Origin: a virus
Lineage: Duplodnaviria > Heunggongvirae > Uroviricota > Caudoviricetes
Virus record (IMG/VR): IMGVR_UViG_2897358383_000002
DNA length: 64,000 nt
Direction: 5' to 3' (one strand)
Shown here piece after piece: positions 29,548 through 30,525 of this stretch. The notes under the pieces are model-generated. The model saw only the letters and a list, made by a program, of their open reading frames with translations, was not told the DNA's origin and did not search any database. A program made the translations under genes and the position numbers. The stretch's first letter is position 1. Each line of letters begins with the position of its first letter.

Positions 29548-30357
29548 ATGCAAGAAGAGAAACAACACTACCTCTACGTTCTGGTGCCAGAGAACGGAGA
29601 TACTTTTAAAATCGGCATTTCATGTGGTCCATTGGCACGGTTTAAAGGGCTACAAGTGAGTCCCGATTTTGCGCTTTCACGGGTCTATCGTGGTACGCGT
29701 TTGGCAATGGTTAATCTTGAGCGGGCTTTACACGCAACCTTTTTCCCCTGGAATGCGCCGTGGGAGAAAAGCGTCGGTGGCGGGCATACTGAATGGTTTA
29801 CACGAGAGTGTCTTGATAAGGTTTTGGCTCATATCGAATATCTAAATGATATGTGGGGAGGGATTCTCGAGCGCATTAAGTCGAATGATTTACTTCAGCG
29901 TCCAGTAGATGCTGCTTGCTCTTTCGAAAAAGAGCTGGATGTTACTTCTATCGTGACTTTCAAAGATGACGCAGGAATGAGGGACGTGGCTTATGTCTCC
30001 ATATCTGGCTATGAACCGGACGCGATCCGCGCTCAATGTGAATTGCTGAAAGCAATGTTTATGCTTCGGACTAAATATCCCTGGGATACAGGGCGGGTGT
30101 GCTTCCCTATGGAAGAGTTAACCGCCACCATTGATTCCCAGCTTTACCACGATAATCCAGAGAAGTTTTTTAGCCTTTTAGCCGGTAATGGGCTTAACTG
30201 TGTGTCCGGGCTGGGGCGAAGTAGAATCCAACATGCCTCGCTCTTCGGTCCCTTCTTTTACGATCGACACGGGTACTTTGAGGCTGAACTTCCGGCGCTT
30301 ACGCGTGCTATAGATACTATCGATTTCGAACGATTATTCGCTGCTCTTAGCAAATAA
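29548..30357 (+). CDS. T5orf172 / GIY-YIG-like domain protein
   Basis: 269 aa. N-terminus HYLYVLVPENGDTFKIGIS...RFKGLQ...GGGHTEWF fits the T5orf172 pattern. The C-terminal 170 aa are unassigned. Confidence 0.55.
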   Translation: MQEEKQHYLYVLVPENGDTFKIGISCGPLARFKGLQVSPDFALSRVYRGTRLAMVNLERALHATFFPWNAPWEKSVGGGHTEWFTRECLDKVLAHIEYLNDMWGGILERIKSNDLLQRPVDAACSFEKELDVTSIVTFKDDAGMRDVAYVSISGYEPDAIRAQCELLKAMFMLRTKYPWDTGRVCFPMEELTATIDSQLYHDNPEKFFSLLAGNGLNCVSGLGRSRIQHASLFGPFFYDRHGYFEAELPALTRAIDTIDFERLFAALSK

Positions 30358-30364
30358 CACTGAT

Positions 30365-30386
30365 GCCCCTGAACGGGGCTTTTTTG
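30365..30386 (+). terminator. Rho-independent terminator
   Basis: GCCCC-TGAAC-GGGGC followed by TTTTTTG. Confidence 0.6.
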
Positions 30387-30525
30387 TGCCCTCCTTGTAA
30401 CTCTCAATCGTGCAAAATGAACCAAACATGCAGAAAATGCTATGTACAAGCATCTACGCATACATTATTATTTTATGCAGCATTTTTAATTAAATTCAAA
30501 AATACAGCATAAAGGATGACTTTCG

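Follow-up and report, generated by a model that had tools for sequence, protein, structure and literature searches.

A candidate nuclease gene at the right-hand end of an exchangeable replicon cassette in P1-like phage-plasmids

The window analysed here is a 64,000-nucleotide stretch of a Caudoviricetes genome (IMG/VR record IMGVR_UViG_2897358383_000002) and belongs to a P1-like (Punavirus) phage-plasmid: over positions 28000-32800 it is 99.8-99.9% identical to phi456 and several records named "P1", and 98.6-99.3% identical to SJ46, JL22 and RCS47. Between the iterons that follow its replication initiator gene repA and Ppar, the promoter upstream of parA, lies a 269-amino-acid (aa) open reading frame (ORF) on the plus strand (29548-30357, ATG start), which is a genuine gene and probably encodes a nuclease of the T5orf172 branch of the GIY-YIG superfamily. 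The original prediction, made from the DNA letters alone, had placed an ORF with its own terminator here, and this layout holds: an intrinsic-terminator-like hairpin (GCCCC-TGAAC-GGGGC followed by six T residues; 30365-30385, plus strand) lies 8 nt past the stop codon and closes the ORF transcript. Of the coordinates given at the time, 29548-30390, the start is right; the end is not that of the coding sequence, which stops at 30357, and takes in the terminator.

Reading the plus strand from the left, a perfect DnaA box TTATCCACA (28080-28088) next to a GATC-rich stretch marks the origin-proximal part of the replicon (28080-28186), which is also approximately the point at which identity with P1 is lost. 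Five origin iterons with the core TTGACTaTaCGCGA, spaced at 21-22 bp, follow at 28189-28294, upstream of repA (28335-29255), whose product matches Rep3_N and Rep3_C and is a Rep3/RepFIB-family initiator of the p0111 type. Downstream of repA, a repeat search finds two direct iterons in the same orientation as those of the origin (29256-29295; starts at 29256 and 29280) and then four iterons in inverted orientation that form an incA-like array (29375-29517; starts at 29375, 29437, 29469 and 29499). The two groups are separated by a strong hairpin (29301-29332; -16.6 kcal/mol, z -3.0) with arms TTGACGCTGGTGG...CTGGCGTCAA; its stem starts with the iteron half-site TTGAC, its left-arm motif TTGACGCTGGTGGATTTT is found again at 7913-7933 of the related locus L004 described below, and it may be a repA terminator or a protein-binding site. 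The ATG of the ORF lies 30 nt past the end of the last inverted iteron (29517). To the right of the ORF, Ppar (30443-30471; -35 at 30443 and -10 at 30466, from the P1 annotation) is followed by parA (30526-31722), and the ParA and ParB proteins are 99.7% and 100% identical to their P1 counterparts. An iteron-like copy, TGTTGACTATAAGCGA, 94% identical to the reference iteron, is present within the repA coding region (28973-28988). The exact 9-mer iteron core ATAGTCAAC occurs inside parA (30694-30702); with at most one mismatch the core has 22 matches in the window against 11.9 expected, and the copy in parA could be chance.

The ORF shares its departure from P1 with the whole replicon to its left. 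The BLAST alignment with P1 stops at ~28173 on the left and starts again abruptly at 30424, 67 nt past the ORF stop, identity being back at 98.5% from this right cassette boundary into Ppar (30424-30471). On the left side, divergence from P1 climbs from ~27375 through upfA, with 0, 5, 9, 12 and ~40 mismatches per 200 bp (27375-28173), and the contrast between this gradual rise and the abrupt right boundary indicates an asymmetric recombination or co-conversion tract. The RepA of the window is 42% identical to P1 RepA, 45-49% identical to the RepFIB proteins of F/IncFIB and 83% identical to the RepA of L004. Taken together, the RepA divergence and the breakpoints of P1 identity argue that the stretch from ori through repA and the iterons to the ORF (~28.17-30.42 kb) is a cassette of p0111/RepFIB-like rather than P1 type that stands in place of the IncY cassette, with the ORF as its right-hand end. 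The earlier description of a gene inserted into a P1 replicon thus has to be given up, whereas the statement that P1 has no gene at this position is borne out: in canonical P1 (NC_005856), incA and Ppar are separated by just 211 bp, unrelated to the window and free of coding sequences, and the slot is also empty in both IncY plasmids with a P7-type par region that were examined. Among 55 P1-like plasmids, the p0111 replicon has been counted in 24 and the IncY replicon in 31 (PMC9603915); the same paper contains the single mention of the gene in the literature searched. In the IncY P1-like plasmid pSvP1 (MN510446), "2 orfs inserted between repA and parA" have been reported at 48,004-49,273 (PMC6906374), and these may likewise fill this slot.

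The N-terminal part of the protein (aa 1-105; 29548-29862) matches Pfam T5orf172 (PF10544) over aa 8-85 (E=6.9e-6), scoring 26.9 bits where the gathering score is 20, and 60 of 61 aligned relatives match this family as well. The motifs of the window protein are Y8-L-Y10, K21-I-G23, R31, E58, H62 and G79-x-T-E82-W-F; Y10, K21, G23, R31, E58 and E82 are invariant across the 61 relatives, S44, H62, G79, T81, W83 and F84 are nearly so, and the conserved positions are those of the superfamily core (GIY, YIG, Arg and Glu). Their spacing also matches that of the residues of I-TevI that we take to be the equivalents (Y6, Y17, R27 and E75). In a structure model built from the 61-sequence alignment, the domain has a GIY-YIG alpha/beta fold resembling SLX1. 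SLX1 itself differs in being a eukaryotic repair enzyme with a RING/PHD C-terminal domain and an SLX4 partner, and identity to nucleases of the SLX1/URI type is only 11-18%. Pfam score, catalytic residues and predicted fold all indicate a T5orf172/GIY-YIG nuclease domain, as originally predicted, and we infer that the protein has nuclease activity. The domain call was already available, since the usual public annotation of the gene, in hundreds of records, is "GIY-YIG nuclease family protein"; the central observation of the original prediction is therefore correct and not new.

Among the closest relatives of this domain are two natural fusions to Rep3 initiator domains, P0044 at locus L056 (T5orf172+Rep3_N+Rep3_C; E 6e-10) and P0015 at locus L055 (T5orf172+Rep3_N; E 1.9e-6). 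L056 (scaffold MUDA16-1_SAMN06140900_METAG-scaffold_84, 4803-7293) carries a 392-aa Rep3 initiator directly followed by the 430-aa fusion P0044, the same order of initiator and T5orf172 gene as in the window. The Rep part of P0044 is 47% identical to the DNA-binding portion of the neighbouring initiator, with the last ~40 residues near-identical, and judging from these alignments P0044 is an Odn-like chimera (Odn, a nuclease of phage ICP1, is discussed below) beside its own paralogous initiator. The L055 gene is similar to P0044 and probably split. The fusions thus resemble the window gene in their N-terminal domains and, for P0044, in lying directly downstream of a Rep3-type initiator; they differ in having bona fide Rep3 domains where the window protein has a single unassignable domain, and they come from uncharacterised metagenomic elements. 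Other relatives of the nuclease domain bear winged helix-turn-helix, MarR, NrtR-WHD or C2H2 modules, and the contexts of relatives include an HNH-rich phage (P0012), a defence-like island (P0013) and an accessory region of a plasmid or integrative and conjugative element (P0016).

A linker (aa 106-155; 29863-30012), modelled with low confidence and differing in length among lineages, connects the nuclease domain to a family-specific C-terminal domain (aa ~156-269, with the stop codon 30013-30357). The original prediction had left the C-terminal part unassigned, and ~165 aa indeed remain outside any assignable sequence family: the C-terminal domain has no Pfam match at E<=10, to a Rep family or otherwise, only a chance-level match in a PDB sequence-profile search and no sequence relatives outside the four lineages described below in an exhaustive HMMER search. 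NCBIfam gave no match, and a phmmer search of the RepA proteins against all collected proteins likewise gave nothing. The structure model of the domain is confident except for a wing-like loop (218-230) and has the helix-strand-helix-helix-hairpin order of a winged helix. With Foldseek against the PDB, the WH1 domain of pPS10 RepA came out on top (E 0.053, probability 0.82), numerous RepE54 entries ranked behind it, and no entry reached E<1e-3. The model thus comes closest to WH1 of iteron-binding Rep initiators, a weak resemblance that we regard as suggestive. The region from aa 103 to 269, linker included, is acidic, with an isoelectric point (pI) of ~5.1 (~5.5 for the whole protein), and is so in all four lineages, whereas RepA has a pI of 9.3. 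Binding of the domain to the iterons in cis was considered and is unsupported: the domain has diverged equally between lineages that share iterons (window and L004) and between lineages with different ones (L005 and L052), without covariation with iteron type.

The gene is widespread within a narrow setting. Copies with at least 95% nucleotide identity are present in 12 phage records and 400 PLSDB plasmids of Escherichia, Salmonella, Shigella and Klebsiella, and PHROG 2876 (function unknown) is the same family (full-length match, 1e-194). A search of IMG/VR returned 44 loci with 91-100% identity, 42 of them at least 96% identical, and a search of genome contigs returned one locus, also of the window type. 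Distant full-length homologues are rare: a word-indexed search of 5.8 billion proteins gave one (P0004, 44% identity), and P0009 and P0011 came from an exhaustive HMMER search of 1.84 billion representatives, in which ~150 further matches cover the first ~100 residues only. The family thus comprises four lineages with 27-44% mutual identity, namely the window type, P0004/L004, P0009/L005-L006 and P0011/L052. In all four the gene occupies the same slot in P1-like contigs, after repA and its downstream iterons and before parA, and starts 20-32 nt past the last inverted iteron. The replicons around it differ. L004, with a RepA 83% identical to that of the window, has the same type of iterons; L005 has a RepA 83% identical to that of P1 and P1-type iterons (ATGTGTGCTGGAGGG); and L052, with a RepA 43-48% identical to all others, has a third type (AGGCTACTGnATGCTAC). 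Because the L005 cassette is P1-like in both RepA and iterons, the slot can be occupied even beside an IncY-like replicon. Some public records describe the gene differently. In SJ46 (NC_031129.1) the coding sequence is short (4324-5007, 684 nt), which fits the Q228* allele of L025, an IMG/VR contig of SJ46 length, and phi456 (OR339795.1) labels the gene "terminase small subunit", a name without backing from the domain evidence.

The exchange of whole cassettes is seen most directly in L004 and L005, the backbones of which are 97-98% identical, with the entire ori-repA-iteron-gene block exchanged and the right breakpoint just past the gene. The cassettes span 6647-8882 in L005/L006, with a RepA 83% identical to that of P1, and 6826-8936 in L004, with a RepA 83% identical to that of p0111. 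As each holds its own diverged copy of the nuclease gene on a near-identical backbone, whole-cassette swapping has taken place in a more distant P1-like lineage too. A tblastn search with P0009 returned 396 plasmid records, a number in line with the ~400 records of the window-type (P1-like) set, and detected no other type. By contrast, homologues of the RepFIB-family RepA are present in >5000 plasmid records, and the gene was not detected among the RepFIB plasmids of PLSDB. The gene is therefore tied to the P1-like rep-par junction and not to Rep3/RepFIB replicons generally. No P0009-type insert was found in complete E. coli genomes.

To see how the gene evolves, we compared 45 copies from IMG/VR and GTDB, of which 36 are intact and represent 25 distinct intact alleles, the window copy included. 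Eight of the 45 are disrupted or incomplete, and one more is cut by a contig end. The lesions comprise the distinct nonsense alleles W68*, S112* (at five loci) and Q228* (the SJ46 type), a copy at L048 that is divergent beyond nt ~303, and the chimeric product P0005. Among the 25 intact alleles, the ratio of nonsynonymous to synonymous polymorphism (pN/pS) is ~0.33 in both domains. Lesions and pN/pS together indicate that the gene is dispensable for maintenance and yet under purifying selection while intact. It diverges much faster than its neighbours: between window and L004, RepA is 83% identical and the nuclease gene 44%. Most of this falls in the C-terminal domain, which is 29-33% identical against 63% for the N-terminal domain within both lineage pairs (window and L004; L005 and L052). 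In the second pair, the N-terminal domains are 63% identical although RepA is only 43% identical and the iterons differ. The gene tree is thus not fully congruent with RepA or iterons, which is the sole hint, from sequence comparison, of independent mobility.

We propose that the ORF product is a homing-endonuclease-like or Odn-like site-specific nuclease that acts in competition between P1-like replicons, a reading to which we give a probability of roughly 45%. It would be a free-standing DNA endonuclease with a catalytic N-terminal domain, a flexible linker and a winged-helix-like C-terminal domain for targeting, through either DNA binding or docking on a Rep-iteron complex. Its gene is a passenger that the plasmid can do without, carried as the last element on the right of the exchangeable ori-repA-iterons-gene cassette. 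The cleavage target and the biological outcome are what we infer from the comparisons. When a rival P1-like plasmid, with another cassette or an empty slot, meets the carrier in one cell, it would be cut. The rival would then either be lost, an outcome like that of Odn cleavage, or have its break mended with the carrier plasmid as template, by way of the upfA and parA flanks common to both. In the latter case, which would amount to homing, the rival would acquire the gene together with the replicon linked to it. Presence or absence of the gene at one conserved slot, across four lineages and three iteron types, supports this reading. Its position at an exchange boundary, as reported for T5orf172 homing endonuclease genes, supports it too, as do the combination of dispensability with constraint on intact alleles and the fast divergence of the putative targeting domain. 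Because homing and rivalry both need related backbones, the restriction to P1-like backbones fits a need for shared flanks or P1-like rivals rather than for replication itself. A more specific version is doubtful in our view: the Rep-WH1-like domain may dock on a rival's RepA-iteron complex or origin so that the nuclease cuts there, as a nuclease-based incompatibility weapon or 'replicon drive'. This could help to explain the swapping of ori-repA-iteron cassettes among near-identical backbones.

The nearest known relatives are the T5orf172 homing endonucleases of ICP1 and Odn. The ICP1 genes are free-standing and lie beside essential genes at the boundaries of exchanged segments, where diverged homologues replace one another at the same locations (Barth, Dunham & Seed 2023, PMC10448857). 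Another ICP1 T5orf172 gene, gp5, is frameshifted in over half of isolates. The window gene shares with these the catalytic family, the free-standing arrangement of nuclease, linker and variable second domain, the place beside essential genes at the edge of an exchanged segment, the diverged homologues in one slot, the presence/absence polymorphism, the rapid change of the non-catalytic domain and the frequent inactivation. It differs in residing in the rep-par module of a temperate phage-plasmid rather than in structural or replication operons of a lytic phage, in having an acidic, winged-helix-like, family-specific second domain in place of a CapR, DUF723 or other zinc-finger type, and in that no single allele turned up in more than one flanking context. 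In Odn (ICP1 Gp88), a T5orf172 nuclease is fused to a RepA_N-like domain that derives from the initiator of the PLE satellite. Odn cuts the satellite's origin at its iterons, and PLE replicon modules, consisting of initiator DNA-binding domain and origin, are swapped in response (Barth et al. 2021, PMC8263062). Like Odn and the Odn-like genes of coliphages Inny, Muut and Mt1B1_P17, the window gene may combine a T5orf172 nuclease with a fold related to origin-binding domains of initiators, and like Odn it is tied to modular, swappable replicons of initiator and iterons; ICP1 ORF88 (Odn) is among the structural matches of the window protein. The differences are that the RepA_N domain of Odn is clearly similar in sequence to its target initiator, whereas the C-terminal domain here is weakly Rep3-WH1-like in structure only; that the domain order is reversed, with the catalytic Glu at E180 in Odn and E82 in the window protein; and that Odn resides in a phage that attacks a satellite, and the window gene inside the replicon cassette itself.

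Several observations weigh against this proposal. All 45 window-type copies are linked to a p0111 RepA at at least 95% identity, and recent independent movement is therefore not seen. Gene gain and gene loss cannot be told apart, because tblastn and word-7 blastn searches of the 211-bp incA-Ppar filler of P1 for a remnant of the gene gave chance matches only. Neither the window nor the three other lineages have a convincing sigma-70 promoter of the gene's own, and no strong Shine-Dalgarno sequence was found for it. The acidity of the C-terminal domain is unlike that of typical DNA-binding modules, which leaves protein docking as an alternative to DNA binding. Finally, the idea that the domain is a sequence homologue of RepA was rejected, the hhalign comparison with the RepA alignment giving a probability of 0.2.

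The same features can be read in other ways. The protein might be a cargo-encoded nuclease that defends on its own against phages or plasmids; its C-terminal domain would sense an invader and the nuclease would degrade foreign or host DNA, to the protection of the lysogen. T5orf172 and GIY-YIG domains do recur in conflict systems, P0013, a close relative of the N-terminal domain, has Mrr_cat, WYL/WCX and Ymh-type genes as neighbours in a chromosomal island, and fast divergence with frequent loss is typical of defence genes. Against this, neither the full protein nor its C-terminal domain matches a PADLOC family (PADLOC-DB v2) at E<=1, the gene has no partner genes, and in four lineages it keeps a fixed slot in the replicon cassette, outside the known variable cargo regions, so that we regard a defence role as unlikely. 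Of the functions for which the original prediction had named the gene a candidate, homing or exclusion fits the comparative evidence, and defence has no direct support. That the gene sits 20-32 nt from the last iteron in every lineage could instead point to a replicon accessory factor, in which an acidic WH1-like domain pairs with the WH1 of RepA, the Rep dimerisation surface, or binds the adjacent iterons, and modulates initiation, handcuffing or copy number, possibly by nicking. Rep WH1 domains are the best structural matches of the C-terminal domain, an acidic domain beside a basic RepA suggests protein-protein contact, and Rep3 fusions and Rep3 adjacency occur among the relatives. We nevertheless consider this quite improbable, as the slot is empty in P1, whose replication is known not to need the gene, and in the two IncY plasmids with a P7-type par. 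In addition, RepFIB plasmids in PLSDB yielded no homologue, plasmids that are otherwise intact carry several independent nonsense alleles, and the divergence of the gene does not follow RepA or iterons (L005 against L052).

Those same nonsense alleles, with the rearranged ones and the strict linkage to the p0111 repA, are what would be expected of a decaying selfish remnant that has no present function and hitch-hikes on a successful replicon cassette. The dN/dS of ~0.33 in both domains (25 intact alleles) and the retention of full-length homologues with conserved catalytic residues in four lineages at 27-44% identity make it very unlikely that the gene is simply decaying. The invariance of the catalytic residues is likewise not predicted by loss of catalysis, and so speaks against the view that the protein descends from a homing endonuclease, has been domesticated and no longer cleaves, and instead binds DNA to regulate, say, the par operon or repA. 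CapR of PLE, a domesticated T5orf172 protein that works as a repressor, is a precedent for such a role, and the gene lies directly upstream of Ppar. The protein is acidic, however, and the P1 par operon is autoregulated by ParA and ParB without such a factor (P1 annotation), and a regulatory role of this kind seems to us highly improbable.

Aspects that appear to be undescribed in the literature searched are the conservation of the slot over four diverged cassettes with three iteron types, the gene as a boundary of exchangeable replicons, its recurrent inactivation, the likeness of its C-terminal domain to Rep WH1 and the existence of Rep3-fused relatives. In E. coli and Salmonella, p0111-type P1-like phage-plasmids commonly carry resistance genes, and the gene described here is present in ~400 PLSDB plasmids. 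If the protein does cut rivals or convert their cassettes, a nuclease-based layer would be added to plasmid incompatibility. This could help to explain why P1-like elements divide into IncY and p0111 replicon types and why they swap replicons as modules, and it would extend the concept of homing endonucleases and Odn from conflicts between lytic phages and satellites to plasmid maintenance modules. Were the gene a hitch-hiking selfish gene only, it would still be a useful marker of replicon-cassette exchange.

Elsewhere in the window, on the minus strand at 39050-39224, lies a match to the Rfam sok antitoxin RNA (RF01794) with 89.7 bits against a gathering score of 59, which by sequence similarity indicates a hok/sok-type module for post-segregational killing in this P1-like backbone. 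Canonical P1 depends on phd/doc.

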